A DNA stretch of 64,000 bases, from positions 522 through 64,521 of the forward strand of contig CAMBRG010000005.1 in the NCBI GenBank assembly GCA_945869845.1, in the 5' to 3' direction. The notes beneath the pieces are model-generated. The model saw only the letters and a list, made by a program, of their open reading frames with translations, was not told the origin of the DNA and made no database searches. This DNA comes from Opitutus sp. GAS368 (lineage in GTDB: Bacteria > Verrucomicrobiota > Verrucomicrobiia > Opitutales > Opitutaceae). A program made the position numbers and the translations under genes. Below, in pieces: positions 13,783 through 51,674 of the stretch. Numbering within the stretch: position 1 is the stretch's first letter; the number at the start of each line of letters is the position of its first letter.

Positions 13783-13856
13783 TGCCTGATGGTGTAAAGG
13801 TAGCACAGGTGACTTTGACTCACCTAGTCATGGTTCGAATCCATGTCGGGCAGCCA
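13783..13856 (+). tRNA. tRNA-Gln (anticodon UUG), CCA encoded
   Basis: Hand-folded cloverleaf. Acceptor TGCCTGA/TCGGGCA, with the U1-A72 pair typical of bacterial tRNA-Gln. D stem GTGT/GCAC. Anticodon stem GGTGA/TCACC with loop CTTTGAC (anticodon at 13815-13817). T arm CATGG-TTCGAAT-CCATG. Discriminator G followed by CCA. Confidence 0.9.
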
Positions 13857-17704: not shown

Positions 17705-17899
17705 TTTGATTCGCTCCAGAAGTTCGCATCCATGGCGGTTGAAGCGAATGAAGCGAATTGACGACGAGATATTCGGTCACCAGCCCGGCATGACGGCGCC
17801 AAACTTTGACTCATCTTCGATTCTCCCTGCGAGTCTCCCTCTGAAAACGCTCGATTCGCTTCAAAAGTTCGTGGTTTGATCCATGTCGGGCAGCCAGTG
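17705..17899 (+). repeat. att-like composite repeat, copy B: ~175-bp arm plus a 19-bp exact copy of the tRNA-Gln 3' end
   Basis: 17881-17899 (CCATGTCGGGCAGCCAGTG) is identical to tRNA positions 13841-13859. The whole 195 bp is ~90% identical to 19741-19935. It contains an internal direct repeat GATTCGCTYCARAAGTTCG at 17708 and 17852. Confidence 0.85.
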
Positions 17900-18061
17900 A
17901 TCCTTAGGGGTGGCGTGTTCTCCCCTAAGCAGAGGTAGTGCGGACTTTCGTTGGTGCCTCACGTGTATGACCCTGCCGGGCGCGAGCCGACGAAGTTTGG
18001 CGTGGTGAATCTCAGCCAGAGGTAGGCGAGTCTACCTTCTCTGGCCGGATCACCGGATTTT

Positions 18062-18895
18062 TTAGACACCGTCTGAAAAGTCGTCCTCTCGAACTCGCGA
18101 CTCCGGGAAATCAGGCGGTGATTCGACGATTCGGCAGACAGTGTCTGCCGAATCCGAAGTGACCATTCGGCAGGACCGAGGCTGAAGGAGGGGAGTTCTA
18201 TCCGGACAGCCGTTCAGAAAGCCGTCGCCAGTCTGTGTCACGTTCCGAGCCATCTGCTTCATCCATTCACCCTCCGGAGCCAGCGTGATTCCGGCGATGT
18301 TGATTTGGCGCGGAACAATCCGCATGAGCACCAGCGCGTAGTAGGTCATCAGTCCGGCAGCCGTCCACACCTCGGTCGTGAAGAAATCCACGGACGCCAA
18401 CGTTTCCTGATGCGATCGGATAAACTCCCTCCAAAGCATTCTTTTTCCTCGTTCAGGGGCGGGAGCCAAGTCGTGCCGCTTGAGAATGTTCGCCACGGTC
18501 TGGTGGCTGACTTCGTGGCCCAGATTGCTGATGGCACCAACAATCCGCCGGTAGGCCCAACTCCGATTCTCACGGGCAAACTGTAGCACCAATTCTTCGA
18601 CGACCGACGCCGTTGGCGCCCGGCCCACCGCAGATCGGTTCTTCGAACCGTCGAACTTCGTGGCAATGAGTTTACGGTGCCAACCTAGAATGGTCTCGGG
18701 CCGAACAATCTGGGCCACTTCCTCCAGTGCCTTCCTGCTAAGACGCCGACCAATCTCGGCGAGGTTGATTCGCTCCGCATCGGTGAGCTGCAATCGCCCC
18801 TTGATCTGATTTTTGAGAATCCGGTTCTCCGCCGCCAAGTATTCGTTTTGGAGGAGTAGTTCCTCGTCAACCGAACCGGAGATATACGCCAACAT
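18062..18895 (-). pseudogene. truncated IS481/IS3-like integrase-core (rve) transposase
   Basis: HTH plus the start of an rve core (...ASVDFFTTEVWTAAGLMTYYALVLMRIVPRQINIAGITLAPEGEWMKQMARNVT...GFLNG). The sequence then loses similarity before the expected catalytic DDE region. No terminal repeats were recognised. Confidence 0.65.
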
Positions 18896-19097
18896 TCGCT
18901 TCCAATTCGTCGAGGAGAATTAATCCAAGCCATGGCCTGCGCGCAAACGTCAGATCATCTGGCAAATCCTTGAAAATTGGTGGCTTCGAGTTTTTTGACC
19001 ATACGGCGTCGGCGCGTTCGGATTTTCAGACACCACGCGACCGATCTTGACCGGACAACCATTTGTCAGCACTATCATGACAAATCTACACATACTC

Positions 19098-19352
19098 ATG
19101 GCAAAGACACTACAAGTTAGGATTGAAGAAGACCTCCGAACTGAGGCGGACGAGGTGCTTCACGAAATCGGCCTCGACGTTCCTTCTGCCGTCCGGCTGT
19201 TCCTCACCAAGGTTGTCCAAACTCGGAGCATTCCGTTCGAGCTCAAGGCCTCCGGTATGCGCGTCGTGGAACTTGCCGTCGATCCCGACATCCATGCCCG
19301 CATGGACGAGATCGGAACCCTTTGGGCGAAGAAGAAACTTCAAAGGGTGTAA
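19098..19352 (+). CDS. RelB/DinJ-family type II antitoxin
   Basis: MAKTLQVRIEEDLRTEADEVLHEIGLDVPSAVRLFLTKVVQTRSIPFEL fits the ribbon-helix-helix DinJ pattern. The ATG at 19098 is preferred over the track start at 19047. Confidence 0.75.
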   Translation: MAKTLQVRIEEDLRTEADEVLHEIGLDVPSAVRLFLTKVVQTRSIPFELKASGMRVVELAVDPDIHARMDEIGTLWAKKKLQRV

Positions 19353-19355
19353 TCT

Positions 19356-19745
19356 GTGGCGCTCTTCATCTCCGAGCGCATTCGCAAGCGCGAGTTTGGC
19401 CGGGAGATTTCTTCCGCCGACAAGGAAACACTCTTGGAGGGCGCGCGCGTCTGCCTGAGTGCGAGCATCGCCGGTCACGGCTTGCCCAAAGGCACCCGTT
19501 TGCTCAAGGCTTACGCCACAACGAAACAAGGCCCGCGCCGGATCCTCTATCTCCTCGTCGTCCAGGAAAATGACTTCTTTGTGCTTTTTTATCGCCCCAA
19601 ACAAGACGACGTCGGTGCAAACATGAGCCCGAAAAATCCCGTCTTCAGCAGCGCCCTCACGAAGCACCTAGATCTGCTCCGCGTTGACCTGGCCGCCGGC
19701 AGAATCGAGCAAATTACACCCGAAGCAGACGGCGTGCCGGTTTGA
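19356..19745 (+). CDS. putative cognate toxin (distant RelE/HigB-like), unknown family
   Basis: 129 aa with a GTG start 4 nt after the antitoxin stop. The segment RRILYLLVVQENDFFVLFYRPKQDD resembles the RIxY...LLxxFxKK strand pattern of RelE-superfamily toxins. The call rests mainly on position. Confidence 0.45.
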   Translation: MALFISERIRKREFGREISSADKETLLEGARVCLSASIAGHGLPKGTRLLKAYATTKQGPRRILYLLVVQENDFFVLFYRPKQDDVGANMSPKNPVFSSALTKHLDLLRVDLAAGRIEQITPEADGVPV

Positions 19746-19983
19746 TTCGCTCCAGAAGTTCGTATCCACGGCGGTTGAAGCGAATGAAGCGAATCGATGG
19801 TGAGATATCCGGTCACCAGCCCGGCATGACGGCGTCAAACTTTGACCTGCTTTCGATTATCCCTGCGAGCCTCCCTCTGAAAACGCCCGATTCGCTTCAA
19901 AAGTTCGTGGTTTGATCCACGCCGGGGAGCCAGTGGGATACGAACTCCGCGCGAGATAAGTTAAATTTTGTAAATCGCTGTAA
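19741..19983 (+). repeat. att-like composite repeat, copy C: arm, degenerate tRNA 3'-end core, and a copy of the tRNA-downstream flank
   Basis: The core at 19917-19936 (CCACGCCGGGGAGCCAGTGG) matches the tRNA end at 17/20 positions. 19942-19983 matches 13868-13909, the sequence just downstream of the real tRNA, at 38/42 positions. Confidence 0.85.
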
Positions 19984-20257
19984 AACAACATGAAAAGATG
20001 AGCTAAAGGGTTCTCACCGTGCTCATTATTTTTCCGGGTAGGTGCAAATCCCTCGACACTGTCCGCAAATAATCGACCGCGGCCTGCTGGTCCCGGTTGA
20101 GCGAATCGGCCAGGGTTCCAGACCAAAAGTGTGTCGGGAGCTTTGGGATCATCGCCTCTAGATTCTATCTTCTCGCACTTCCGCCAAGATCCGTCGCCGC
20201 GCTTGGATTTCCAGACACCAAGGCGTTCCCCGTCGAATCGCCGGCCCGATTAGGAGG

Positions 20258-21736
20258 TCACGCCAGAATGCCGCGGATCACGTGACCATGCACGTCGGTC
20301 AGGCGGCGCTCGATTCCGCTGTTGTAGAAAGTCAGCCGCTCGTGATCGAGGCCGAGAAGGTGAAGAATCGTGGCGTGGAGATCATAGATCGTCGTGACCT
20401 TGTCCACGGCCTTGAACCCGAGATCGTCGGTGGCGCCGTAGGTGAAACCGGGTTTCACGCCCGCGCCGGCCAACCAGACGGTGAAGCCCTTTTCGTTGTG
20501 GTCGCGGCCATTGGCGCCCTTTTGAAACGTCGGCATGCGGCCGAATTCGGTGACGAATGCCACCAGCGTGTCCTTGAGTAGTCCGCGTTCTTTCAGATCC
20601 CGCAATAGCGCGGCGGCCGGTTGATCGAGGATGGGCGCGTGAGTAGTGTATTGATCGACGATGTGTTTGTGTCCGTCCCAGTTGCCGACGCCCTCGCCCA
20701 TGGCGTAGGCACCGTTGAAGAGCTGCACGAAACGCACGTCGCGCTCCAGAAGCCGACGCGCGAGCAGGCAGTTGCGGGCGAATCCCGCTTTGGTCTTGTT
20801 GCCATCGTTCACCCCGTAGGCCTGCAACGTCTGCAGACTCTCTTTGGCAAAGTCACCGACCTCGGCCGCGGCGAGCTGCATTTTGGCGGCGAGTTCGTAG
20901 GCCGAGATCCGCGCCGCGAGTTCCGTGTCACCGGGATTCTCCGCGAGATGGCGATCATTGAGCAGTTTTAGAAAATCGTAAGTCGCGCGGTCATTCTGCG
21001 CGGTGACACCAGCCGGTCGGTTAAGATGCGGGATCGGTTTGTCGGCGTTGAAGGTGACGCCCTGATATGCTGCGGGCAGAAACCCGGCAGCCCAATGGCG
21101 CGAACCGGTCTGCGGCACGCCGCGTGGATCGGGAATCGCCACGAACGCGGGCAGATTCTGGCATTCGCTGCCGAGCGCATACGTCGCCCACGAACCGATG
21201 CCGGGAAAACCATCGAGGATGAAACCTGTGCTCATCTGATTTTCTGCCGGACCGTGCGCGGCGGACTTCGCGGTCATCGAGTGAATGAAGCACATCTCGT
21301 CGGCGAGTTCCGCGAGATCGGGCAGAAGGTTGGAAACCATCTTGCCACTCTGTCCACGGGGTTTGAATTCCCAGAGCGGTTTGATGACGTTCCCCTGCAT
21401 GCCCTGGCCGGTGATAAGACCTTCGCCGCCCGGCATGGGCTGGTTGTGCAGCCGAATCAGCTCGGGCTTGTAGTCGAAGGTGTCGATGTGGCTGATTGCC
21501 CCGGAGCAGAAGATCATCAACACGCGTTTGGCTTTGGGCTCGAAATGCGGTGGGCGTGGCGCGTAGGGCGTGCGAGAGTTAATCTGCGGACGCCACGGAG
21601 CCCCGGCCGCGCTGAGGCGTTGTTCGGCCAGGAGGGCGGCGAGCGCAATGCCTCCGAGTCCTGTTCCACCCCAGCGAAGGAAATCACGGCGACTGAGGAG
21701 ATGGCGTCCGGCGTGCGAGAGAGGGGAGGGGTTCAT
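20258..21736 (-). CDS. DUF1501 domain protein (sulfatase/alkaline-phosphatase-like fold) with a twin-arginine signal
   Basis: Tat motif SRRDFLRWGG and the conserved GRDHN region (ANGRDHNEKGFTVWLAGAGVKPG). The ATG at 21736 is preferred over the TTG at 21760. Confidence 0.85.
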   Translation of the reverse strand: MNPSPLSHAGRHLLSRRDFLRWGGTGLGGIALAALLAEQRLSAAGAPWRPQINSRTPYAPRPPHFEPKAKRVLMIFCSGAISHIDTFDYKPELIRLHNQPMPGGEGLITGQGMQGNVIKPLWEFKPRGQSGKMVSNLLPDLAELADEMCFIHSMTAKSAAHGPAENQMSTGFILDGFPGIGSWATYALGSECQNLPAFVAIPDPRGVPQTGSRHWAAGFLPAAYQGVTFNADKPIPHLNRPAGVTAQNDRATYDFLKLLNDRHLAENPGDTELAARISAYELAAKMQLAAAEVGDFAKESLQTLQAYGVNDGNKTKAGFARNCLLARRLLERDVRFVQLFNGAYAMGEGVGNWDGHKHIVDQYTTHAPILDQPAAALLRDLKERGLLKDTLVAFVTEFGRMPTFQKGANGRDHNEKGFTVWLAGAGVKPGFTYGATDDLGFKAVDKVTTIYDLHATILHLLGLDHERLTFYNSGIERRLTDVHGHVIRGILA

Positions 21737-21743
21737 GGTCGAA

Positions 21744-24700
21744 TCAGTGAACGTGGACAAATTCGTTCGTGTTGAAGAGCGCGCGGCAGAAAAGCGGCAG
21801 GCCGTGCTCCGCGATCATCGCGACTGCGGCGGTCGTCTCCACCGGCGCCGGCTCGCGACCAAACATCAGTCGAAACGCCAGCCGCACCTGCGCGCCGGCG
21901 GTCGGGCCCGCCTCCCGCTCCAATCGAGCGGCGAGGGCCGTCGTCTGCTGCATCATGAATGGGCTGTTGAGGAGATTGAATGCCTGCAACGGTGTCGTTG
22001 ACCGAGTGCGGCTCGGCGCAATCTGGCCGGCGTCGGGACAGTCGAACGCGCCGAAGACGTCGTCGAGCTGCGCGCGCGGTTTCGTCTGATAAACCATGCG
22101 CCGGAAATCGTCCCCGGAAAAATCAACCTTCGGCACGTAAGTCTGGACGTTGCTCTGGCTGATATTGGCTTCGAACAGGAAGAATCCCGGACCACCCTCG
22201 CGCAGATCCAGCTGGCCAGCCGCGGTGATGATCGCATCACGCAACGGTTCGGCGTCCAAGCGTCGCGGCGGATAGCGCCAGAGGAGCCGCGACGCAGCAT
22301 CAACTTCGAGTCCTTTGGGGTGCGGGCGCGACGACTGCCGGTAAGTGTCAGAAAGCAGGATCAGCCGGTGCATTGATTTCATGCTCCAGCCACGGGCGAC
22401 AAACTCGGTCGCCAGCCAGTCCAGCAGCTCCGGGTGCGTGGGCTTGGCTCCGTTCATTCCGAAGTCGCTCGGGGTGTCCACGAGACCGGTCCCAAAGTGA
22501 TAGTGCCAGATGCGGTTCGCCATGACTCGGGCCGGCAGCGGATTTTCCGAATCAACGAGCCAGTCCGCTAGGGCCAGACGGCGTTTTTGCTCCGGAGCGT
22601 CGCGGGGCAGTTCGAGCTTCTTCCCAAACCGGGCTAGCCCGGCCGGCGCCACTTGCTCGCGGGGTGACAACGTCTCGCCGCGGTGCAGCCGAAACGTCGG
22701 GCCCGGTTCGCGCAACCTGCCCGCGTAGACCGGCGGAAAGTCGATCAGACGCTTCACCTCAGTGCGGAGGGTCCGGCGTTCAGCGACCAGCTGGGCAATT
22801 TCCATTACGCGCGCAGTCGGCACGGAGCTGAGCGTCGGCACGTCTGGCACGCGCTTCCGCCACGCATCGCCTAGACGATCCTGGGACCCAGCCACCTGCG
22901 TCCATGCGCGCCCATCGACCGAGATCTCGATCCGATATCCCGTGACAAGATGGTCGTCCAGTTTGGGCTGACGATCACTACGGTTGCGGCTCCACAGCAT
23001 ACGGTCGATCCGCTCCACTTTCGGAAACTCGATCTGCACGAACCCCGGCCCCTTGGCGGGAGAATTCCAGGCCGCACGCTCGTTGTAGCGGCCATCATTC
23101 ACGTAAAACGGATTGCCGTCCTCGCCGTCGACCACGGGCGAAGTCGCGGTGGCGCCGAATTCCTTTAGGGCGACATTCCGGGGCGACTCGCCGGCAGTAA
23201 AGACCTCGAGTTCGTCGATGTAGCCCTCAGGGGTGTTCGAGGCGAGGACGGTGAAGCGCACGAACTTGGCGTCGATCGGTTCGAAGCGCTCTTCGTTGGT
23301 CTTCACGACCACGGGCGCCCGCAGATGCGGCGTGTGCATGGGAGCCTCGCCCGCGGTGGTTTTCAATTCCTCGAGGAGGACTGCATCGGCGGACAGCATG
23401 CCGCTTCCGACTGCGATAAGCGCGAGCCGGCTTTCGCTCGTCAGCGTGTGGATGTTGGCGTCGTAAAATCCACTCCAGCGTTTCTCGCCGGAGACCGCCG
23501 GTGAGCCATCGGCAAACTTGGCCTGGCTCACCTGTGCGATTTCGCGCCCGTCGAGCGTGACGCGCACCGCCGTCGCGTGCTCCGGTGCCACACCCCACGA
23601 AAGCCAGACGCGGAAGCGGCCGACCGGAAGCGCGCCCCATGGCTGCCACGCCGATGCGCTGTCGCCGCCCGCGGGACGCACGCGGAAGTTCTCATTCAAG
23701 GTCGGTAGCCGCAGCTCGTCGCCCGCGTCGCTTGCCTGGCCGCGGGCCGACCCTGCCGTATAGGCAACAGACTCGCTCGTCTTCTCGGGTGCCAGCGCGA
23801 CCACTCGCTTGGCCCGCACCAGCGGCCGAAACGGTGCGAGCTGAGCGTCGATCGACGCGATACCGCGCCGCGGCGCCGCGGCCTGTGCCATCAACGCGGC
23901 GTGGTTGCGCGGCCGCAACGGACGTTCGCCGTGCTCTACACCTTGGAAAACCGCGACCATCGAATAGTAGTCGGCCTGCGAAATGGGATCGAATTTGTGA
24001 TCGTGACAGCGCGCGCAGCCCACGGTGAGGCCCAAAAACGCACTGCTCGTGGTGCCGACGAACTCGGAGAGTTCGTCCCCGCGTTGGCCGAGGTTAAAAT
24101 AGGGTGGCTCGAAACTTTGCAGGAAGTCGAAGGATCCGCCGACGATGAAGCCCGTCGCTTCGTCGACCCCGAGCGCATCGCCGGCGAGCTGCTCGCGGAC
24201 GAACTGGTCGTAGGGTTTGTCCTCGTTCAAGGCACGGATCACGTAGTCGCGATAGGGCCACGCGTTCGGACGGAGATTGTTGCGCTCGAAACCGTCGCTC
24301 TCGGCAAATTTCACGACGTCAAGCCAGTGCCGCGCCCATCGTTCGCCGTAACGCGGTGACGCGAGCAGCCTCTCGACCAAACGGGCGTAGGCATCCGGGG
24401 ATTTGTCCGCCACAAACGCGTCCACTTCATCCGGCGTGGGCGGCAATCCAATCAGATCAAAACTCAGCCGGCGAATAAGCGTCCGCGCGTCGGCCGGCGG
24501 CGAGAGCGCGAGGCCGTTTTCCTTCAGCTTCACCGCGATGAACGCGTCGATCGGAGTTTTCGCCCCGCCCGGGGGAACAGGCGGCGTTTCTGGACGAGCC
24601 AACGGACGAAACGACCAGTGTGATTTCCATTTCTCCCCGACGGGCGCCCGACCGTCGTCGGGCCAAACGGCTCCTTGGTCGATCCACGCGCGGAGGATTC

Positions 24701-25052
24701 CGATTTGTTCTCCAGTTAACGGGTCGCCCTTGCTTGGCATGAGCATGTCCTCGACTAGGTCGGCAACGTAGTGAATGAGCGGACTCGCCGCGCTCTTTCC
24801 GGCACGAATGTTGGGCGCTGAACTTTCGCCCCCGGCCAGCGCGATGCTTTTGTCGTCAAGCCGGTAGCCGCTGCGTTGTTTTTCCGGGCCATGACACGAG
24901 TAACAGGATTGCTCGAAGATCGGCTGAACATCGCGGGTGAAATCGATCGGTCGCGATGCGGGCGGCGGTAGTTTCGAAGCATCGACGGGTGCGTCGGCAA
25001 ATACAGGGGTGCCCAGAGCGCAGAGGCCAAGTAAGAGCGCAGGCTGTCTCAC
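21744..25052 (-). CDS. PSCyt1-DUF1549-(discoidin-like)-DUF1553 giant protein (PSD1 family)
   Basis: Signal peptide, then the haem c site CYSCHGPEKQRSGYRLD. DUF1549 segment (...LIRRLSFDLIGLPPTPDEVDAFV...), the CARCHDHKFDP motif, and the DUF1553 C-terminus. A middle insert (FVRFTVLASNTPEGYIDELEVF, GYRIEISVDGRAWTQV) looks like an F5/8 type C domain. The GTG start forms a GTGA overlap with the GMC stop. Confidence 0.85.
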   Translation of the reverse strand: MRQPALLLGLCALGTPVFADAPVDASKLPPPASRPIDFTRDVQPIFEQSCYSCHGPEKQRSGYRLDDKSIALAGGESSAPNIRAGKSAASPLIHYVADLVEDMLMPSKGDPLTGEQIGILRAWIDQGAVWPDDGRAPVGEKWKSHWSFRPLARPETPPVPPGGAKTPIDAFIAVKLKENGLALSPPADARTLIRRLSFDLIGLPPTPDEVDAFVADKSPDAYARLVERLLASPRYGERWARHWLDVVKFAESDGFERNNLRPNAWPYRDYVIRALNEDKPYDQFVREQLAGDALGVDEATGFIVGGSFDFLQSFEPPYFNLGQRGDELSEFVGTTSSAFLGLTVGCARCHDHKFDPISQADYYSMVAVFQGVEHGERPLRPRNHAALMAQAAAPRRGIASIDAQLAPFRPLVRAKRVVALAPEKTSESVAYTAGSARGQASDAGDELRLPTLNENFRVRPAGGDSASAWQPWGALPVGRFRVWLSWGVAPEHATAVRVTLDGREIAQVSQAKFADGSPAVSGEKRWSGFYDANIHTLTSESRLALIAVGSGMLSADAVLLEELKTTAGEAPMHTPHLRAPVVVKTNEERFEPIDAKFVRFTVLASNTPEGYIDELEVFTAGESPRNVALKEFGATATSPVVDGEDGNPFYVNDGRYNERAAWNSPAKGPGFVQIEFPKVERIDRMLWSRNRSDRQPKLDDHLVTGYRIEISVDGRAWTQVAGSQDRLGDAWRKRVPDVPTLSSVPTARVMEIAQLVAERRTLRTEVKRLIDFPPVYAGRLREPGPTFRLHRGETLSPREQVAPAGLARFGKKLELPRDAPEQKRRLALADWLVDSENPLPARVMANRIWHYHFGTGLVDTPSDFGMNGAKPTHPELLDWLATEFVARGWSMKSMHRLILLSDTYRQSSRPHPKGLEVDAASRLLWRYPPRRLDAEPLRDAIITAAGQLDLREGGPGFFLFEANISQSNVQTYVPKVDFSGDDFRRMVYQTKPRAQLDDVFGAFDCPDAGQIAPSRTRSTTPLQAFNLLNSPFMMQQTTALAARLEREAGPTAGAQVRLAFRLMFGREPAPVETTAAVAMIAEHGLPLFCRALFNTNEFVHVH

Positions 25053-26851
25053 AGGTTTCCTTTTTTCATTTCGCGGAGCAGGTGGTCGCTCGCGCGCCAG
25101 GCCAGCGCCATGATCGTGAGAGTGGGATTCTTGTCGGCGTTACTCGCGAACGGCGCGCCATCGGCCAGGAAGATATTTTTCACATCCCAGGTCTGACCCC
25201 ATTTGTTGGTGACGGATTTTTTCGGATCGGCGCCCATGATCGCGCCGCCCACCTCGTGGATCACCGCGCCGCCCTGCACGATGGCGCGGCGCCCGTCCGA
25301 ATCAGGCTGACCGCGCACCGTGCCACCCATAGCGACGACCAAATCGGCGAATGTGCGCTGCATGTGCACCACCTGTCGCAGCTCGTGATCTGACCATTGC
25401 CAGTGGAAGCGCAGGACCGGAATTCCCCAACGGTCCTTCACGGCCGGGTCGAGTTCGCAGAAGGACTGCTCGTTCGGGATCATTTCGCCGCGGCCGGTAA
25501 AGCCTACGAACGATCCGTAGTAGCGGCGCATGTCTTCCTTGAATTGCCGCCCGTAGCTTCCGCCTGTCATTGAGACGGTGCCGTTGGCGATGCCCATGCC
25601 CGGCATGCTTCGCCCGGTGCCGAATTCGACGTGGTAGCCGCGGGGAAAGTTAAGTTTGCCCTGCCCTTGTGGTTTGCAAAGCCACCAAGGAATGAAGACG
25701 TGCAAGCCGCCGGCACCGTCCTCGTTGTGCGGAGGTAAATTTTCCAGCCTAGGGATCTGCCCGCCGAGCGAGGCCCCGACGGTATCCATCACGTATTTTC
25801 CAACCAGGCCGCTTGAGTTTGCTAGGCCGTTGGGAAACGACGCCGACTTCGAATTCAGGAGAATTCGGACAGTCTCCGCTGAGCTTGCGGCCAGCACGAT
25901 TACCCGGCCACGCACCCGGCCCTCGTGGCCGGTTTTCTTGTCGATGAAGACTACCCCATTAGCTAAACCAGCAGAATTGAGGGTGACCTCGCGGACCATC
26001 GCGTCCGTCAAAAGGTCGAGTAGCCCGCTCGCCATCGCGGGTGGCAAATGGACGGTCGTTGACTGGTAAGCCGCGCCGATTGAGCAACCGCGATGACAAT
26101 GCGTCGCCCAGAAACATGCCGAGCGTGCCCGCATCGACTCCGCGACGAGACGTTGAGCGCGCAGGTTGCCCGGGTGGAGTTTTACGGGCACGTTTCGATC
26201 ATTAAGCCGCGTGCTGAGTACGGCGCGATGGACGGGGACAACAGGTATTCCTAAAGATTGGGCGTGTTTCCGTGCGAGCTGTTCGCCGGCGCGGGGTTTG
26301 GGCGGTGGGAGCAATACGCCGGGCGGAGAATCGGGCGAGTTCTCGATCCCCTCGCTGTCGCCATACACCCCGACAAGCATCTCAACTTTGTCGTAGTAGG
26401 GCGCGATGTCTTCATAGGCGAGAGGCCAGTCGAAGCCGAGGCCATCCCGGCTGCGGGGCTTGAAATCGTAGGGCCCGTTGCGGAGAGAGATGCGGCCCCA
26501 ATGATTGGTGCGGCCCCCCAGCATGCGTGAGCGCCACCACATGAACTGTTCCTCGGGCTTGCTTGAGGCGTTCGTGTAGGGTTCACCGGGCACCTGCCAA
26601 CCGCCGTCGACCGTGGCATCGTGAAACCCGCGCGGTTTGTCCGGCGTGCCCACGCCTCGGAGGGGAGCGTCGGCGTTGGTTTGAAACATCGCGGTCTCCC
26701 TGACCGGGTCATAGTTTCTGCCCGCTTCGATCATCAACACGCTGGCACCCTCCATTGTTAAGGTGTAGGCGGACTGACCGCCACCGGCGCCCGAACCCAC
26801 GACGATGACATCGTAGGAGTCTTTCAATTCACTTGGATTGATGAGCGCCAT
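25049..26851 (-). CDS. GMC-family FAD-dependent oxidoreductase (gluconate 2-dehydrogenase alpha-subunit-like), no signal peptide
   Basis: 600 aa. N-terminal Rossmann motif DVIVVGSGAGGG and the GMC C-terminal region (...FLADGAPFASNADKNPTLTIMALAWR...). Confidence 0.9.
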   Translation of the reverse strand: MALINPSELKDSYDVIVVGSGAGGGQSAYTLTMEGASVLMIEAGRNYDPVRETAMFQTNADAPLRGVGTPDKPRGFHDATVDGGWQVPGEPYTNASSKPEEQFMWWRSRMLGGRTNHWGRISLRNGPYDFKPRSRDGLGFDWPLAYEDIAPYYDKVEMLVGVYGDSEGIENSPDSPPGVLLPPPKPRAGEQLARKHAQSLGIPVVPVHRAVLSTRLNDRNVPVKLHPGNLRAQRLVAESMRARSACFWATHCHRGCSIGAAYQSTTVHLPPAMASGLLDLLTDAMVREVTLNSAGLANGVVFIDKKTGHEGRVRGRVIVLAASSAETVRILLNSKSASFPNGLANSSGLVGKYVMDTVGASLGGQIPRLENLPPHNEDGAGGLHVFIPWWLCKPQGQGKLNFPRGYHVEFGTGRSMPGMGIANGTVSMTGGSYGRQFKEDMRRYYGSFVGFTGRGEMIPNEQSFCELDPAVKDRWGIPVLRFHWQWSDHELRQVVHMQRTFADLVVAMGGTVRGQPDSDGRRAIVQGGAVIHEVGGAIMGADPKKSVTNKWGQTWDVKNIFLADGAPFASNADKNPTLTIMALAWRASDHLLREMKKGNL

Positions 26852-26891
26852 TTCCGAAAAGCTGCTATCGGTGCCAAGAAATTGGCCCGGA

Positions 26892-28187
26892 TTATTCCGG
26901 GAGCGGCCGCCCCTTGGTTTCTGGTGCGAGCCAGATTACAACTAGTCCAACTACATAGACCAACGTGATGATTGCGCCCGCCCGGGCGTAGCTGCCGTCG
27001 AACACCTTCATGAGTGCCCCCATCTGGATGGCGGCGGCGGCGGCTAGAATCCGTCCGGCGTTGAAGGCTACACCCTGCGCCGTCGCGCGCACGCGAGTGG
27101 GGAAAAGCTCGGGCAGGTAAAGCGGGAGCCAGCCATAGAACGCCGCCGTAGTCGCGCCCACCAAAAATGTCATGGCCAGAAATCCGGAGTTGTAGTGGTC
27201 GAAACCGCGGAAAATCCACGCGCAACTGCCCAGCGAGCCGAGGCAGAGCAGAAAGAACGCGGGACGCCGGCCCAAGCGGCCGCCGATCCAGGCCCCGGCA
27301 AGGCAACCGATGATCGAACCGACCGCCGTCAGCGTTTGCACGAAGGCTTTCGCCCGCGGCTCCCCGGGACCGGCCATCTGGTCCGCCCACAGGGGCAGCC
27401 ACTGCACCGAGCCCCATGAGCCGATCAAGGCGATGCTGGCCAAGAGCGATCCAAGCAAAGTCAGGCGAAGCAGGGGGCGCGAAAGCATTTCTTGAAGCGG
27501 ACGCGCCGGTCCGGCCCGCGCGGCCTCGAGCCAGCGGGGTGACTCCGGCACATAAAGGCGGATGAAAAATGTGAGCAACGCCGGCGCGGCGCCGATCAAC
27601 ATCACCCAACGCCAAGAATCCTGTGTCACCGGAAAGAAGATCCCGATTAGCCCCACGACGGCGAAACCGACGTTGGCTGCCGCTCCGATCACCCCGGCTA
27701 GGAGGGGACGATGTTTCTCCGGCCAGACCTCCATGACCAAGGCCACACCCAGCGACCACTCTCCGCCCATTCCCAGCGCGGCTACGAACCTGAGCGCTCC
27801 GAGTTGCAGCGGGGTCTGGGCAAAATACGTGATCCCCGTGAACAGCGAGTAACAGAGGATTGCCAGGCTCATGGCCCGAACCCGACCGACCCTGTCGCCG
27901 AGCCAACCAAAGACGAGACCGCCGAGCGCAGCGCCGAGCAGGAAAAGCGCCGTAATGATCCCCATCCATTGGCCGATATAGCCATCGCCCACTGTGCCCG
28001 CCGCTTGCTGCATTTCCAGCAGAGCGGGTCGGGCGACCAAAGGGAAAATTCCCATCTCCAAACCGTCGAACATCCAGCCGAGGAAGGCCGCGACAAGAAC
28101 GAGATTTCGCCGGTCGGTCGCGACCGCAACGGGTGGGAGCGGCGAGGGGGAAGCCGGGAGAATTGGAAGGTTAGATTTCGGGGGCAC
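26892..28187 (-). CDS. MFS transporter (paralog of 37630-39009)
   Basis: 431 aa, 12-TM pattern, with motifs GWMFDGLEMG and GWLGDRVGRVRAM. GTG start. Confidence 0.85.
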   Translation of the reverse strand: MPPKSNLPILPASPSPLPPVAVATDRRNLVLVAAFLGWMFDGLEMGIFPLVARPALLEMQQAAGTVGDGYIGQWMGIITALFLLGAALGGLVFGWLGDRVGRVRAMSLAILCYSLFTGITYFAQTPLQLGALRFVAALGMGGEWSLGVALVMEVWPEKHRPLLAGVIGAAANVGFAVVGLIGIFFPVTQDSWRWVMLIGAAPALLTFFIRLYVPESPRWLEAARAGPARPLQEMLSRPLLRLTLLGSLLASIALIGSWGSVQWLPLWADQMAGPGEPRAKAFVQTLTAVGSIIGCLAGAWIGGRLGRRPAFFLLCLGSLGSCAWIFRGFDHYNSGFLAMTFLVGATTAAFYGWLPLYLPELFPTRVRATAQGVAFNAGRILAAAAAIQMGALMKVFDGSYARAGAIITLVYVVGLVVIWLAPETKGRPLPE

Positions 28188-28431
28188 GGCAGCAGTGATT
28201 TTCGGGGAATCGACCAGGCGGGGTTAAAGGCAGAGTCGCCGAAAACAGCGGCGCGCATCGTAAACAGAATCTACAGTGAGGGGGCAGAAATGGGTATCAA
28301 GATCAAAGATCGATGTGATCGATCATTAAGTTATTGACAGCAGATGACGCTAGAATCACCTCAACTGGTGAGCGGTATTCCGGATGCCTCACCTTACCTC
28401 ATCCTCGGGATTCCCCCCCCTTTATCATTCA

Positions 28432-29010
28432 ATGGCACATAAAGTTCTTATAATCGTTGGCGATGCGACCGAGACCGTCGACACGCTGTATCCTTACTAC
28501 CGGCTGCAAGAGGCGGGGTTTATTCCCGTGGTCGCGGCACCCGACAAGCGACGCTACCAAATGGTCCTGCACGAGGTGAAGCCGGGCTGGACGATCACCA
28601 AAGAATGGGAGGGATATACGATCGAGGCGGACATCGCGTTTCGCGACATCAAGCCCGAGGAGTATGTCGGGATATTTTTCAGCGGCGGGCGGGCCCCGGA
28701 ATACATCCGCGACGATCCGGATCTGATCAACATTACCCGTTGGTTCTTTCAACACAACAAACCGATCGCCAGCGTCTGCCACGGCTGCGAAATCCCGGCG
28801 CGCGCCGATTGCATCCGAGGTCGGCGGATCGCGGCCGTGGGCAAATGCCGGTTCGACGTCGAGGTGTGCGGAGGTATTTTTGTGAACGAACCTTGCGTCG
28901 TGGACGGAAATCTCGTCAGCGGTCGCACCTTCCACGACCACGGGAAATACATGGGATCTTGGATGCGCCTGCTCGAAGCCGAACGCCAGCGTCTCGAGGC
29001 GGCGGCTTGA
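28432..29010 (+). CDS. DJ-1/PfpI family protein
   Basis: MAHKVLIIVGDATETVDTLYPYYRLQEAG..., with the nucleophile-elbow cysteine context IASVCHGCEI. Confidence 0.85.
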   Translation: MAHKVLIIVGDATETVDTLYPYYRLQEAGFIPVVAAPDKRRYQMVLHEVKPGWTITKEWEGYTIEADIAFRDIKPEEYVGIFFSGGRAPEYIRDDPDLINITRWFFQHNKPIASVCHGCEIPARADCIRGRRIAAVGKCRFDVEVCGGIFVNEPCVVDGNLVSGRTFHDHGKYMGSWMRLLEAERQRLEAAA

Positions 29011-29048
29011 ATGATCGTCGAAACTCGCAGCCAACTACTGAAATAACG

Positions 29049-29957
29049 ATGACACGGCGCGAATTCATGACGGTCGCGGCGGGTGGAGCCACGGTGGCGG
29101 GTTTGCCAAGGTTGGGCGCGAAGACCGCGCGGAATGACTTCAATCTGGGGTTCAGTCTCTATGGCATGAAAACGCTCCCGCTGGAGCGGGCGTTGGCCGA
29201 ATGCGCGCGGATCGGTTATCGCAACATCGAGCTCGCCCTCATTGCGGGCTTTCCCACGGAGCCGGCGAATCTCACCAAAGAGACACGGACGACGGTGCGG
29301 CGGCAGGTCGCCGCGTCGGGGCTTCCGGTATCAAGCTTACTCATCAATCTCAGTTTGGCCGCCGACGAAAAGGCCCACGCGACCCACCTAGAAAATCTGC
29401 GGATCGCCGCCCTTTTTGCGGCCGAAATCGACCCAGTTAAACCTCCGATCGTGCAAACGGTGATGGGAGGTGCGCCGCAGGACTGGGAGGAGAAAAAAGT
29501 CCTGATGGCGGCGCGTCTGCGCGAGTGGAACGCGATCGGGCGCAGCCATGGGGTTACGGTAGGGGTGAAGGCGCACGTCCAAAGTGCGGTGAATACTCCC
29601 GACAAGTTGCTTTGGATGCTCCAAGAGGCCGGTGGATCGAACCTCGCCGTCGCCTACGACTATAGTCACTACGCGCTCGCCGGGATCTCCCTTGAAGACA
29701 GCCTGCGGCCGCTCGCCTCCCAGATTAAATTCGTGCACATCAAGGATGCACGGCGAGACGGTAACGATGTTCGTTTCTTGCTCCCCGGCGATGGCACGAC
29801 GGACTACGCCGCCTATTTTCAACTGCTCGAGAAATACGGTTATCGCGGCCCAGTGGTGGTCGAAGTAAGCAGCCAAATTTTTAGCCGGCCCGATTACGAT
29901 CCGATTGCCGCCGCCGAGAAAGCGTATGCCGCGCTCACCCGAGCCTTGGAAAAGTAG
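29049..29957 (+). CDS. Tat-exported xylose-isomerase-like TIM-barrel protein (sugar phosphate isomerase/epimerase family)
   Basis: The internal ATG at 29049 gives MTRREFMTVAAGGATVAGLPRLGA, a twin-arginine signal. The body (...ECARIGYRNIELAL...VAYDYSHY...FVHIKD...) fits the AP_endonuc_2/TIM family. Confidence 0.8.
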   Translation: MTRREFMTVAAGGATVAGLPRLGAKTARNDFNLGFSLYGMKTLPLERALAECARIGYRNIELALIAGFPTEPANLTKETRTTVRRQVAASGLPVSSLLINLSLAADEKAHATHLENLRIAALFAAEIDPVKPPIVQTVMGGAPQDWEEKKVLMAARLREWNAIGRSHGVTVGVKAHVQSAVNTPDKLLWMLQEAGGSNLAVAYDYSHYALAGISLEDSLRPLASQIKFVHIKDARRDGNDVRFLLPGDGTTDYAAYFQLLEKYGYRGPVVVEVSSQIFSRPDYDPIAAAEKAYAALTRALEK

Positions 29958-29991
29958 CGTCGCCCACCCCTGTCGTCCCCCATCAAAAATC

Positions 29992-32301
29992 ATGCACATA
30001 CACTCCCAAACCACTCACTCAGTCTTCCGGGCCGTAGGCCTGTTCTTGCTTCCCGTTGCGCTCCTTGCCCAGACCCCTTCGGCGGTGCCCGACCCCGGCG
30101 CAAATCCCGCCGCCGAGAAAATTATTAAGCTGTCTGCGTTCGAAGTCCAAGGTGCCTCGGCAGGCTATGGGGCGCAGTATTCGAGTTCTTCTTCACGTCT
30201 CAATCTGCGTTATATAGACGTCCCTCAATCGGTGGGTGTCGTTACCGCCGAGTTTCTCAACGATGCCTTCGTCTTCGACAGCCGCGAGTTCACGAAATAC
30301 GTGCCCAACGTCCAGCCCCGCTCCAACACGCACCAGCCGGAGATTATGTATATCCGCGGACTGCAAATTTCCAATACCTATGTCGACGGCTATATTGCCC
30401 CGCTAGCGGTCCAACGCGACCGCGGGCTTTACGATCGGATCGAGTATGTAAAAGGACCGGCGTCCGCCGCGATGGGCCGCGGCGAGGCGGGAGGCTTGGT
30501 TAACTTTATTTCGAAATCACCGCTCAATACGAATCGCAACATCGGTGACATTACGCTCGGTTCAGATTCGTTTTACCGAGCTGAGTTTGATCACAACTCG
30601 CGCATCACGCCCAACGGGAGCATGGCTTACCGCATACCCCTTTTCTACGAACAAGGTGATGGCCCGCGCGGCGGAGAATTGATGCGTTCGCGCAAATATG
30701 GCATCGGGCCCTCGTTTCGTTGGGTAATCGGGCCCAAGACCAGCCTGCTGATAAACACATCTTACGCCTACAACCAAAGCGGCGGCCCCGTGGGGGAAGC
30801 CTATTGGCAGAATAATGAACAGTTCCGCCTCCAAGCCTCCTTGGGTCAGATCAATCCCAACAATCCGGCGCAATGGAATCCATTTCGAGGCGATGCTTAC
30901 ATTCCGAAAGAACGCGTCTTCGGCTGGGCCGGCCGGGGACGTGAGAGCGATATCACCACGCTTTCCGCGTTCTTCACCCACAAGTTCAGTGATTCGCTTT
31001 CCATCCGGCAGGGTATCGCGCGTAACGACGTCAAGGAGGAACTCCGGCGCTTCGCGATGTCGCCGACGGCCTTGCGCAACCCCGCCTTTCCTAACGATTT
31101 CCAAGTTGGCCTGAGCTATCTACGGGAGTTTAGGGACATTGATAGCACGCGCGTCCAAGGCGATGTGCTCTATGAGCTCAAATTCGGCTCAACTTCTCAC
31201 CAACTGCTTGCCGGCTACGATGTCGTGCGTGGCAACAACGATACTCGCTCGGGCCAGCAGGGCGGTCTGACCCAGCTTCTGTATAACCCCAACTACACTC
31301 TGCCCGCCGGATTCAATCCGGAAACCTATGTTCAAGTTTATACCACCGACACCAAGAGCAAGAGCGACGGATTCGGCTATTTTTGGCAATACTCCGGCTC
31401 TTTTTTCAACGATAAGCTTAGTGTGATGTATGGCTGGCGGAAGGATAAGAGCGGTATTGAAACGCTCAACCGCCGGACGAACGTCTTGTCCACGCCCGCC
31501 GACCTAACAACCGACGTCCCGCGATACTCGGTCAGCTACAAGCCCGTGGATTGGCTATCCGTCTACTACGTCCATAGCGAGCAGGCCGATCCGCGGGTCA
31601 ATGCGCTCCTTTACGGCAACATTTTGCCCAGTGCCGGAGCGGTCGGCTGGGACCCGAACGATCCGCGGTTGCAGGAGCGCCTCACGTCGCAGGTGAAGGC
31701 CGAGATGGACGAGATCGGGGTGAAAGCGAGCTTGCTCGACAATCAGCTCACTGCGTCCTTTGCGCTCTTCAATATTGTTCGTAACGGATTTATTCTGAAC
31801 GATTTCAAATCTGAGCCAAGCCGTAATGGGGTCGGTTCCGTTTCGTTCAATCGGAACTACATAGCAGACGGCGAAAACGCCCGTGGCTTTGAATTGGAAC
31901 TGAACGGCAAGCTTACAAAACGACTCACTATTCTCACGGGGGCCAACGGTATCACCGGTGAAAAACGCGCCTCCGATGGACGCATCGTGCCAATCGAGGC
32001 GATGATCAACTCTACGATGATCAACGCCCGGTATGATTTACGGGACAACAACCGCAACGGCTTCGAAGTCACCGCCGGCGGAAAGCTGATGTTCAAGGGC
32101 TGGGTCATGGCCCCCGGCACCTACGAGTCTTTCCGTGCCGACCAATACTTGCTCGACGCCGGGGTGAATTACTCGTGGGCCAATGGGCGCTACTCGGTGC
32201 GCTTGCGCTGCAATAACATCATGAACGATCTCGTGTTCATCTCGGGAAACTCGCAATATGCACTGCGCCGGTTCTTCATCTCGGTGCCGATTCGATTTTA
32301 G
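29992..32301 (+). CDS. TonB-dependent receptor
   Basis: Signal peptide MHIHSQTTHSVFRAVGLFLLPVALLAQTP, a plug region (IDVPQSVGVVTAEFLND), a long beta-barrel, and a terminal aromatic residue (...ISVPIRF). Confidence 0.85.
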   Translation: MHIHSQTTHSVFRAVGLFLLPVALLAQTPSAVPDPGANPAAEKIIKLSAFEVQGASAGYGAQYSSSSSRLNLRYIDVPQSVGVVTAEFLNDAFVFDSREFTKYVPNVQPRSNTHQPEIMYIRGLQISNTYVDGYIAPLAVQRDRGLYDRIEYVKGPASAAMGRGEAGGLVNFISKSPLNTNRNIGDITLGSDSFYRAEFDHNSRITPNGSMAYRIPLFYEQGDGPRGGELMRSRKYGIGPSFRWVIGPKTSLLINTSYAYNQSGGPVGEAYWQNNEQFRLQASLGQINPNNPAQWNPFRGDAYIPKERVFGWAGRGRESDITTLSAFFTHKFSDSLSIRQGIARNDVKEELRRFAMSPTALRNPAFPNDFQVGLSYLREFRDIDSTRVQGDVLYELKFGSTSHQLLAGYDVVRGNNDTRSGQQGGLTQLLYNPNYTLPAGFNPETYVQVYTTDTKSKSDGFGYFWQYSGSFFNDKLSVMYGWRKDKSGIETLNRRTNVLSTPADLTTDVPRYSVSYKPVDWLSVYYVHSEQADPRVNALLYGNILPSAGAVGWDPNDPRLQERLTSQVKAEMDEIGVKASLLDNQLTASFALFNIVRNGFILNDFKSEPSRNGVGSVSFNRNYIADGENARGFELELNGKLTKRLTILTGANGITGEKRASDGRIVPIEAMINSTMINARYDLRDNNRNGFEVTAGGKLMFKGWVMAPGTYESFRADQYLLDAGVNYSWANGRYSVRLRCNNIMNDLVFISGNSQYALRRFFISVPIRF

Positions 32302-40433: not shown

Positions 40434-40491
40434 GATCAGGAGGTGCGGAGCGGAAAATCCACCGCCCAGCGGTCCATGGTTGGAGGGAACC

Positions 40492-41961: not shown

Positions 41962-41988
41962 GGGTACGGGGCCTGAGTGCGGACTGGG

Positions 41989-45291: not shown

Positions 45292-45304
45292 GAGGTCTGT
45301 CTCC

Positions 45305-51664: not shown

Positions 51665-51674
51665 AGTCTCCCTC

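Follow-up and report, generated by a model that had tools for sequence, protein, structure and literature searches.

FAD-dependent dehydrogenases with a GMC-type catalytic alpha subunit normally require a small Tat-signal gamma subunit that carries alpha across the membrane. The described enzymes closest to the one considered here are the FAD-dependent glucose dehydrogenase (FAD-GDH) of Burkholderia cepacia, a gamma-alpha-beta complex (PDB 6A2U/8GRJ), and the fructose dehydrogenase (FDH) of Gluconobacter (PDB 7W2J). In the B. cepacia enzyme (BcGDH), Cys212, Cys218 and Cys222 ligate a surface 3Fe-4S cluster and His105 is linked to FAD; in this enzyme class the 3Fe-4S triad marks the route to a periplasmic cytochrome (PMC6719666). 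Caulobacter LacABC, whose GMC-type dehydrogenase is encoded in a cluster with IolE-like genes and genes for sugar uptake (PMC8121099), represents, like the Agrobacterium-type glucoside 3-dehydrogenase, a periplasmic, cytochrome c-dependent 3-ketoglycoside route. From Planctomycetota and Verrucomicrobiota, a module of a PSCyt1/PSCyt2/PSD1 protein and a DUF1501 protein has been described without a defined redox partner (Kamneva et al. 2012, PMC3542564; He et al. 2017, PMC5615132).

We analysed a 64-kb stretch of DNA, hereafter the window, taken from a 65.6-kb MAG contig of a freshwater Opitutaceae bacterium. In it, four genes on the minus strand form one operon:

26892-28187, minus strand: MFS transporter, 431 aa, operon gene 1
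25049-26851, minus strand: GMC flavoprotein, 600 aa, Pfam GMC_oxred_N/C
25049-25052, minus strand: GTGA stop/start overlap from GMC to PSD1 (ctGTGAgac, read directly)
21744-25052, minus strand: PSCyt/PSD1 protein (PSD1), 1102 aa
20258-21736, minus strand: DUF1501 protein, 492 aa from its ATG, last operon gene

The gene order and spacing given by the first-pass annotation, which was made from the sequence alone, are borne out when the sequence is read directly. The TAA of the MFS gene ends at 26892 and the GMC ATG lies at 26851, leaving a 40-nt gap; the GMC and PSD1 genes share the GTGA; and the TGA of PSD1 ends at 21744, 7 nt before the DUF1501 ATG at 21736. An alternative TTG start at 21760 would lengthen DUF1501 to 500 aa and turn that gap into a 17-nt overlap. 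The MFS protein (Pfam MFS_1 2e-43, Sugar_tr 4e-33) has an uncertain start, either the GTG at 28187 or an ATG at 28073; gene callers on the identical contig started the protein at residue 39, an ATG, for a length of 393 aa.

Homology identifies the GMC protein as the catalytic alpha subunit of a DET-type FAD-dependent enzyme of the FAD-GDH, fructose dehydrogenase and glucoside 3-dehydrogenase class. In addition to Pfam GMC_oxred_C (9e-23) and GMC_oxred_N, it matches the alpha subunits of both solved enzymes, 6a2u_B at 8e-44 and 7w2j_A at 8e-40 (residues 12-598). It shares with them a signal-less alpha, the C-x5-C-x3-C ligands and the FAD-linked histidine (PMC6719666). Judged by eye, its N-terminus, MALINPSELKDSYDVIVVGSGAGGG, has no signal peptide and runs straight into GxGxxG. 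Cys246, Cys252 and Cys256 align with Cys212, Cys218 and Cys222 of BcGDH, and the triad is invariant (86 of 86 sequences). His117, aligned with His105, is present in 85 of 85. A surface 3Fe-4S cluster and covalently bound FAD may therefore be expected in the protein, and the earlier assignment of a signal-less flavoprotein to the gluconate 2-dehydrogenase, fructose dehydrogenase and FAD-GDH class stands. In the window's protein a Phe stands in place of BcGDH Cys213, the residue that is disulfide-bonded to gamma.

The Tat-signal Gluconate_2-dh3 gamma subunit of FAD-GDH occurs in the window's close relatives and is absent from the window itself. Searching all six reading frames of the window at maximum sensitivity with a profile of 62 Gluconate_2-dh3 sequences gave no gamma gene: the best E was 0.47, and positive controls reached about 290 bits. 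This agrees with the first-pass annotation, which had seen none accompanying the GMC gene. Nor was a gamma gene found in the fetched flanks of the seven other gamma-less loci. The sister subclade (L015, L165, L166 and L170) does have gamma, as do 66 of the 80 GMC relatives. The subclade without gamma and the one retaining it are both recovered in 200/200 bootstrap replicates, and their sister grouping in 195/200; gamma was deleted from the operon once, in the window's subclade. It shares an operon with both PSD1 and DUF1501 in L015 and in the more distant relatives L031, L171 and L173, and with PSD1 in L165, L166 and L170, whose contigs stop short of DUF1501. Because the three genes are co-operonic in these relatives, DUF1501 does not appear to be a replacement for gamma by origin.

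An alpha subunit without a gamma gene beside it is found elsewhere in the family. Sharing of gamma is common: in L017, L023 and L030 each gamma is arrayed with two or three alpha genes, and L003, L013 and L045 hold orphan alphas without an adjacent gamma; L003 and L013 also have neither PSD1 nor DUF1501. The nearest outgroup to the window's GMC protein, found in L031, lacks its own gamma and lies 2.4 kb from a GMC-gamma-PSD1-DUF1501 cluster. Most probably, the alpha subunit of the window's subclade draws on a gamma gene at another site in the genome. Counting against this, both alpha loci recovered in MAG CANJIU01 (L006 and L013) are without an adjacent gamma. Across 273 conserved alpha columns we saw no relaxed constraint or remodelling after gamma loss: 261 are kept in gamma-less alphas versus 254 in their gamma-retaining sisters. 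The only fixed substitution specific to gamma-less alphas is A495V, which argues against a remodelled alpha surface.

The three-haem membrane cytochrome beta of FAD-GDH and FDH is also absent. In its place the translationally coupled gene encodes a PSCyt1/PSCyt2/CBM/PSD1 protein of 1102 aa that carries two CxxCH motifs, and DUF1501 comes next. Pfam recognizes PSCyt1, PSCyt2, F5_F8_type_C and PSD1 (2e-87), arranged as PSCyt1-PSCyt2-(two beta-sandwich/CBM-like domains)-PSD1. The N-terminus, MRQPALLLGLCALGTPVFA|DA, has a Sec-like signal as judged by eye. The first-pass annotation was right about the Sec-type signal and the haem site, and its single CxxCH is in fact two, C50YSCH and C346ARCH, the second extended as CxxCHDHKxDP; both are invariant in 65 homologues. 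The discoidin insert resembles the CBM32 of NagH/NagJ (6e-5). In searches with the AF2 model (pLDDT 84.7), structural neighbours were found for the beta-sandwich region only, with glycosidase-CBM neighbours for the second beta-sandwich and no solved relative of the helical domains. No conventional cytochrome gene was found near GMC in the window or in 78 related loci: within -4/+5 kb of the 78 GMC-orthogroup loci, PSD1 is the only CxxCH gene except for isolated single-motif ORFs in L034, L044 and L074. PSD1 is the sole haem-c protein beside the GMC of this orthogroup, so the proposal that it accepts the electrons is a reasonable one.

The window's pair is identical in architecture to the published module, down to the optional F5_F8_type_C insert and a twin-arginine DUF1501 gene directly downstream, a layout also seen in most of the 80 PSD1 loci of our reverse survey. 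The DUF1501 protein (Pfam 1.5e-143) carries the motif SRRDFLR, judged by eye, and the twin-arginine signal reported earlier is thus confirmed, though not as a feature linked to GMC. It is found on 69 of 71 DUF1501 proteins whether or not a GMC gene is nearby, and is intact in seven of the eight GMC-linked ones; in L084, a gamma-less locus on a single metagenome contig, the arginine pair is broken (SRHDFLR). The Tat signal is thus a property of the DUF1501 family and not specific to GMC. Faint matches point to alkaline-phosphatase-superfamily enzymes (LtaS 0.068, sulfatases, Pfam DUF229 0.002); the monomer prediction gave no usable model (pLDDT 36.8). No conserved gene was found downstream of DUF1501.

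The operon is enclosed in a conserved locus of about 16 kb, which includes a divergent operon and the control region between the two:

28305-28327, no strand: palindrome in the divergent control region, from a repeat search
28384-29010, plus strand: DJ-1/PfpI family protein (Pfam 2e-30), divergent operon gene 1
29040-29957, plus strand: Tat-signal (TRREFM) xylose-isomerase-fold enzyme, AP_endonuc_2 (Pfam 3e-24), IolE-like
29905-32301, plus strand: TonB-dependent outer-membrane receptor (Plug domain 2e-11), syntenic
32313-35333, plus strand: DUF7133-HEAT-cytochrome c protein (Pfam DUF7133 7e-65, Cytochrom_C 1e-5)
35444-36127, plus strand: GntR/FCD transcription regulator (Pfam GntR 2e-15, FCD 6e-13)

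Within the palindrome, a perfect 10-bp palindrome, TGATCGATCA (about 28316-28325), recurs in the corresponding intergenic regions of L004, L001, L015, L084 and L165 and is a candidate shared operator. An MFS gene also lies upstream of GMC in L001, L004, L005, L015, L055, L084, L085, L165 and L166. The DJ-1/PfpI gene is syntenic in L001, L004, L005, L015, L055, L084 and L165, the DUF7133-cytochrome c gene, which encodes a putative PVC-type dehydrogenase with its own haem domain, in L001, L004, L005, L015 and L055, and the GntR/FCD gene, whose product likely regulates the locus, in L001, L004, L006, L015, L031, L055 and L165. The AP_endonuc_2 gene is syntenic in every PSD1-linked GMC locus, and L031, L045, L171 and L173 have a homologue as the gene immediately upstream of GMC; the enzyme is a likely keto-sugar-processing partner of the dehydrogenase. 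This syntenic Tat-signal protein gives the locus an IolE-like gene, as in LacABC. Unlike in LacABC, the haem partner is of the PSCyt/PSD1 type. A keto-glycoside context is suggested by (i) the syntenic or adjacent AP_endonuc_2 gene, (ii) PF06439, a 3-keto-disaccharide hydrolase family, which adjoins paralogous GMC-gamma loci, (iii) the LacABC precedent (PMC8121099) and (iv) the CBM32-like insert of PSD1. No DUF1080 gene was found in the window's locus.

The first-pass annotation had named uniqueness to this genome as a test of the adjacency. We found the adjacency in multiple related loci, retained in four gene orders, three of which include gamma:

MFS-GMC-PSD1-DUF1501: window, L001, L004, L006, L055, L084, L085
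MFS-gamma-GMC-PSD1: L015, L165, L166, L170
APendo-GMC-gamma-PSD1-DUF1501 in L173; GMC-gamma-PSD1-DUF1501 in L031
GMC-gamma-amidohydrolase-PSD1-DUF1501: L171

An (A/G)TGA overlap of GMC with PSD1 recurs in 12 of 12 PSD1-linked loci from both subclades, and the 7-nt gap between PSD1 and DUF1501 in 8 of 8; on these counts the arrangement is beyond chance. In the more distant L173 it is gamma that overlaps PSD1. Outside this lineage the pair keeps other company. Neither GMC nor gamma flanks 78 of the 80 nearest PSD1 relatives, which were drawn from metagenomes, and L172 and L174 are likewise pairs without a dehydrogenase. Upstream partners are heterogeneous, the commonest being sulfatases (5/38), then lectin-like domains. 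The window itself holds a second PSD1-DUF1501 pair, 40% identical and located after a TonB-dependent receptor.

The explanation we favour, at a probability of roughly 45%, is an ancestral system built from gamma, alpha, PSD1 and DUF1501 as its four components; the PSD1 haems would stand in for the absent cytochrome, and gamma would now act in trans. In this lineage, translation of alpha has long been coupled to that of a dihaem PSCyt/PSD1 protein, whose DUF1501 partner is obligate. Substrate would enter through the TonB-dependent receptor and be oxidized in the periplasm by alpha, probably to a keto-sugar or keto-glycoside. Electrons would pass from FAD through the 3Fe-4S cluster to the PSCyt haem or haems of PSD1, which would fill the place of the beta cytochrome otherwise missing from this GMC subfamily. 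The keto product would be processed by the Tat-exported TIM-barrel enzyme and the processed product imported by the MFS transporter. DUF1501 would partner PSD1, as in every other PSD1-DUF1501 pair, and would not replace gamma.

It is possible, though we find it doubtful, that the dehydrogenase and the pair share a pathway and not a complex. PSD1-DUF1501 would then be a self-contained periplasmic module that acts on the dehydrogenase's own glycan or glycoside, binding or modifying it through its CBM-like domains and an alkaline-phosphatase-superfamily-like enzyme, and GMC would use a generic periplasmic acceptor. In 66 of the 80 related loci GMC is simply paired with gamma and has no cytochrome gene in the neighbourhood, so alpha generally needs no dedicated haem partner. 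The many unrelated contexts of the pair, sulfatases foremost, agree with such a module, as do the receptor preceding the window's second pair, the CBM-like domains of PSD1 and the amidohydrolase gene inserted between gamma and PSD1 in L171. However, the strict overlap of GMC, or of gamma in L173, with PSD1 points to matched expression of the kind typical for subunits; the linkage endures four rearrangements; and the invariant haem motifs indicate that PSD1 is a redox protein needing a donor or acceptor. The three-component dehydrogenase of the first-pass annotation, in which DUF1501 would bind folded GMC, complete with FAD and Fe-S, in the cytoplasm and carry it through Tat, with PSD1 as the haem acceptor, now seems unlikely. 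The missing gamma gene, in the window and in the flanks of the seven other gamma-less loci, would be explained, and the retained Fe-S ligands, with no sign of decay, suggest that GMC is presumably still periplasmic and in need of an escort. The operon encodes no Tat-signal protein other than DUF1501, and neither alpha locus of CANJIU01 offers an adjacent gamma. Yet gamma and DUF1501 are not mutually exclusive, occurring together in L015, L031, L171 and L173; the Tat signal is present regardless of a GMC neighbour and broken in GMC-linked L084; A495V is the lone fixed change in gamma-less alphas; and the orphan alphas L003 and L013 indicate that alphas can lack a neighbouring gamma outside the context of the pair as well.

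In its stricter form, with the PSD1 haems as a dedicated acceptor and DUF1501 carrying folded alpha through Tat after gamma loss, the escort is quite unlikely. If it were true, alpha, PSD1 and DUF1501 would form a three-component periplasmic complex, the first biochemical role for any PSD1-DUF1501 pair. Very improbable, in our view, is a GMC protein turned cytoplasmic in the gamma-less lineage, its substrate imported by the MFS transporter and its adjacency to PSD1-DUF1501 an inherited order now without function. The absence of a signal peptide, and of gamma from operon and window, would allow this, as would the importer-type MFS gene directly upstream, but the same gene is equally present in gamma-containing L015, L165 and L166 and thus has no cytoplasmic implication. 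The invariant 3Fe-4S triad, in this class the route to a periplasmic cytochrome (PMC6719666), points the other way, as do the unrelaxed constraint on alpha and the overlap with a Sec-exported haem protein, kept in all eight gamma-less loci.

The first-pass annotation had hoped for a role general to all PSD1-DUF1501 pairs, and the GMC-free surroundings of 78 of the 80 nearest PSD1 relatives speak against it; the link is restricted to the window's Opitutaceae lineage. Only there, in the loci compared, is the module translationally coupled to a predicted flavo-iron-sulfur dehydrogenase subunit, and this conserved link offers a rare handle on a gene pair that has long been unexplained.

The four minus-strand open reading frames that the first-pass annotation had read as a transporter and three candidate components of a periplasmic dehydrogenase lie at 20258-28187, in agreement with it at every coordinate and with clear-cut Pfam assignments:

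26892-28187, minus strand: MFS transporter (Pfam MFS_1, 2e-43), start uncertain
25049-26851, minus strand: GMC oxidoreductase, 600 aa (Pfam GMC_oxred_C, 9e-23)
21744-25052, minus strand: PSCyt1/PSCyt2/F5_F8_type_C/PSD1 protein, 1102 aa, here called PSD1 (Pfam PSD1, 2e-87; PSCyt2, 3e-82)
20258-21736, counted from ATG, minus strand: DUF1501 protein (Pfam DUF1501, 1.5e-143)

The junctions read from the sequence are likewise those described: a 40-nt gap between the MFS and GMC genes, a stop/start overlap of GMC and PSD1 at 25049-25052 (ctGTGAgac), and a 7-nt gap between PSD1 and DUF1501, which becomes a 17-nt overlap with the TTG start. The (A/G)TGA overlap of GMC and PSD1 is found in 12/12 loci from both clades discussed below, and the 7-nt gap in 8/8 loci. 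Downstream genes vary from locus to locus, with no conserved fifth gene 3' of DUF1501. Promoter and terminator scans of 19600-29100 gave the same counts as shuffled sequence, and operon boundaries therefore could not be drawn from them. A 6-bp G+C-rich hairpin, CCCGGAATAATCCGGG (26886-26901, minus strand), covers the MFS stop codon in the 40-nt gap ahead of GMC. It has a weak T-tail, and the region is no richer in terminator-like sites than shuffled sequence. Mobile-element debris occupies 14150-19745, directly downstream of DUF1501, and consists of an IS21 element (IstA 15468-16727, IstB 14653-15471) that seems to interrupt an AAA/DUF4143 ATPase gene, the halves of which lie at 14150-14749 and 16903-17652, a transposase fragment (18062-18895) and a RelB-type antitoxin pair (19047-19745). 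The sole Rfam match in the window is a tRNA gene at 13783-13853 (plus strand).

The GMC protein had been assigned to the membrane-associated FAD dehydrogenases, correctly so because of its structural relatives and cofactor sites. Its nearest solved structure is 6a2u_B, the alpha subunit of Burkholderia FAD-glucose dehydrogenase (8e-44), and it aligns end to end with 7w2j_A, the large subunit of Gluconobacter fructose dehydrogenase (8e-40). Cys246, Cys252 and Cys256 (C-x5-C-x3-C), invariant in 86/86 relatives, align to Cys212/218/222 of the Burkholderia cepacia enzyme (BcGDH), the ligands of a surface 3Fe-4S cluster that feeds electrons to the cytochrome subunit (PMC6719666), and His117, found in 85/85, aligns to the FAD-linked His105. 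The N-terminus leads directly into GxGxxG, in keeping with the reported lack of a signal peptide; signal calls for GMC, PSD1 and DUF1501 were made by eye. The published gamma-contact residues of BcGDH could not be transferred to this protein: Leu172-Phe176 fall in a poorly aligned stretch with an 18-residue insertion, and the stretch corresponding to Leu333-Met342 is unaligned in the window GMC. A clade-specific substitution test over the whole alignment was used instead.

PSD1 begins with a Sec-like signal, MRQPALLLGLCALGTPVFA/DA, as had been proposed, and it does carry CxxCH, in two motifs (C50 and C346) rather than the single one claimed. The second (residues 346-356) reads CxxCHDHKxDP, closes PSCyt2, and is invariant across 65 homologues, the window's own 33%-identical paralogue among them. 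The AlphaFold2 model, a confident one (65 homologues; pLDDT 84.7, pTM 0.76), is helical in its N-terminal third, where both haem motifs lie, and again in its C-terminal third, with two beta-sandwiches in between. A PDB fold search with it returned weak matches of the beta-sandwiches only, to CBM-like domains of glycosidases (TM-score normalised to query at most 0.10); the helical PSCyt2 and PSD1 domains matched no PDB structure. The search gave no basis for transferring a function.

The reported absence of a gene for gamma, the small Tat-signal Gluconate_2-dh3 (PF13618) subunit, was upheld throughout the window: when all six translated frames of the 64 kb were searched with a 62-sequence Gluconate_2-dh3 profile and every filter disabled, the best E was 0.47, with positive controls at ~290 bits. 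We surveyed 80 loci with GMC relatives (46-99% identity) in species-representative genomes, classifying neighbours by phmmer. A gamma gene adjoins GMC in 66; four loci are cut by a contig end, four are orphans, and six, which all come from Opitutaceae (75-99% identity), show PSD1-DUF1501 downstream or a truncated version of the same layout. CxxCH-bearing genes other than PSD1 occur within -4/+5 kb of GMC in almost no surveyed locus. The subfamily is normally a two-gene unit of alpha (the GMC flavoprotein) and gamma without a dedicated cytochrome. Sharing of gamma is normal in the family, because tandem arrays exist in which a single gamma accompanies two or three alpha genes (L017, L023, L030). 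One metagenome-assembled genome, CANJIU01, contains a gamma-less PSD1-linked GMC (L006, 85% identical) and an orphan GMC behind a TonB-dependent receptor (L013, 71%), neither with an adjacent gamma.

Gamma and PSD1-DUF1501 also occur together. At locus L015 (GMC 74% identical) the order is MFS-gamma-GMC-PSD1-DUF1501 with full divergent synteny, the small ORF being a true Gluconate_2-dh3 protein (2e-24) with an RR signal. A search with this gamma and context look-ups gave three further such operons (L165, L166, L170), in each of which the gene overlapping the GMC stop was confirmed as PSD1. The nearest relatives of the L015-type gamma, inspected for a relocated copy, all adjoin a GMC gene, with no orphan among them. 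A PSD1 search added relatives at 58-60% identity in still other gene orders. L173 reads TBDR-AP_endonuc_2-GMC-gamma-PSD1-DUF1501, L171 has the same order plus an inserted amidohydrolase, and L031 has GMC-gamma-PSD1-DUF1501 and, 2.4 kb away, a second GMC that lacks gamma and is the nearest outgroup to the window's clade. In neighbour-joining trees (200 bootstrap replicates), all gamma-less PSD1-linked GMCs (window, L004, L005, L006, L001, L055, L084, L085) form one clade, and its sister clade unites all GMCs of the gamma-retaining MFS-gamma-GMC-PSD1 type; each clade is supported in 200/200 replicates and the two joined in 195/200. PSD1 linkage is therefore older than the loss of gamma, which was a single event, and the PSD1-DUF1501-linked system was built while gamma was present.

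These relationships bear on the suggestion that DUF1501, which carries SRRDFLR, escorts the signal-less GMC protein through the Tat system in place of gamma. Gamma coexists with PSD1-DUF1501 in the sister operons, and the Tat signal is a trait of the DUF1501 family: the RR motif is present on 69/71 full-length DUF1501 ORFs from all fetched loci, nearly all without GMC nearby. In the gamma-less, GMC-linked L084 locus the DUF1501 protein (8869-10380) has SRHDFLR for SRRDFLR, which breaks the twin arginine, on a single metagenome contig (an error or a real variant). Across 273 alignment columns at least 90% conserved in 37 gamma-linked relatives, the eight gamma-less sequences keep 261 and L015/L038 keep 254, with A495V the only substitution fixed specifically in the gamma-less clade; judged by these columns, alpha was not remodelled after gamma loss. 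Orphan alphas with neither PSD1 nor DUF1501 exist (e.g., L003, L013). At L045:9001-9996, L031:9032-9970, L171:2462-3361 and L173:3576-4478 the gene directly upstream of GMC encodes a Tat-signal xylose-isomerase-fold (AP_endonuc_2) protein, with adjacent gamma absent in two cases (L045 and L031 GMC-B); such a gene is also syntenic in the window. DUF1501 is thus not the sole Tat protein available, and the AP_endonuc_2 protein may be a partner in the pathway or serve as another Tat escort. Escort by DUF1501 in the gamma-less clade keeps a low probability, its main argument being removed, and DUF1501 as a gamma substitute is neither demonstrated nor favoured. The DUF1501 sequence has faint similarity only, to alkaline-phosphatase-superfamily enzymes, and a structure model from the window's two paralogues (pLDDT 36.8) was discarded.

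The proposed role had also been extended to PSD1-DUF1501 pairs in general. The GMC link recurs beyond the window, but 78 of the 80 nearest relatives of the window PSD1 in JGI metagenomes are without it. The two with a GMC neighbour are the closest (77% and 73% identity), both MFS-GMC-PSD1-DUF1501 without gamma. The flanks of the other 78 contain no GMC or gamma ORF, upstream sequence exceeding 300 nt in 68 and 2 kb in 49. Same-strand upstream genes of these relatives vary (sulfatases 5/38, Laminin_G_3 3, radical SAM 2, FecR 2, GntR and others), and L172 (Chthoniobacter, 57%) and L174 (55%) are GntR-flanked pairs without GMC. As an internal control we used the second pair in the window, ~40% identical to the first, near which (39006-47563, minus strand) there is no GMC gene:

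45305-47563, minus strand: TonB-dependent receptor, ahead of the pair
41989-45291, minus strand: second PSCyt/PSD1 protein, paralogue of the first
40492-41961, minus strand: second Tat-signal DUF1501 protein
39006-40433, minus strand: DUF2231-PSCyt1-LRR protein, after the pair

The GMC/PSD1-DUF1501 association is real and lineage-restricted, not general, and thus cannot define the role of the whole family. Elsewhere in the window, a second periplasmic redox cluster (50633-55462, plus strand) encodes a Tat-signal AP_endonuc_2 protein (50633-51664), a 754-aa cytochrome c protein (51633-53897) and a DUF7133 protein (53894-55462).

On the divergent side, which is conserved along with the operon in both subclades, are genes for DJ-1/PfpI, the Tat-signal AP_endonuc_2 enzyme, a TonB-dependent receptor, a DUF7133-HEAT-cytochrome c protein and a GntR/FCD regulator. 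Within the MFS/DJ-1 divergent control region a perfect 10-bp palindrome, TGATCGATCA (within 28305-28327), is kept in 6/6 syntenic loci examined (window, L004, L001, L015, L084, L165), with -35-like TTGACA/TTGATA hexamers beside it; the GntR/FCD regulator of the locus may use this palindrome as its operator. Paralogous GMC-gamma loci, L167 (1650-2456), L168 and L169, have a divergently adjacent PF06439 (3-keto-disaccharide hydrolase, DUF1080) gene, which supports 3-keto-glycoside chemistry for the GMC subfamily. Caulobacter LacABC, a homologous glucoside 3-dehydrogenase, clusters with IolE-like genes (PMC8121099). The PF06439 neighbours, the LacABC analogy and a CBM32-like insert in PSD1 suggest that a sugar or glycoside is oxidised in the periplasm to a keto intermediate.

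What stands of the three-component idea is a conserved, translationally coupled GMC/PSD1-DUF1501 association; DUF1501 as a stand-in for gamma is not favoured, and a general role for the pair is not supported. As a dedicated haem partner of the dehydrogenase only PSD1 is plausible, and the state in the window's organism is most likely alpha with a putative trans-encoded gamma, PSD1 and DUF1501.

PSCyt/PSD1-DUF1501 pairs, of which this 64-kb window has two, belong to the most expanded gene families of Planctomycetota and Verrucomicrobiota. The searchable literature assigns them no function since their first description (PMC3542564, PMC5615132), and a search for the function of DUF1501, DUF1549 or DUF1553 gave only the 2012 and 2017 descriptions. 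Restricted as it is to one lineage, the GMC link alone cannot explain the family at large. The locus couples one pair translationally to an enzyme with well-understood chemistry and an electron-output site, the surface 3Fe-4S cluster, and the haem role of PSCyt thereby becomes a concrete question: is PSD1 reduced by an alpha(gamma) dehydrogenase? The sister operons with and without gamma offer a natural comparison for the periplasmic delivery of a signal-less, cofactor-bearing enzyme.
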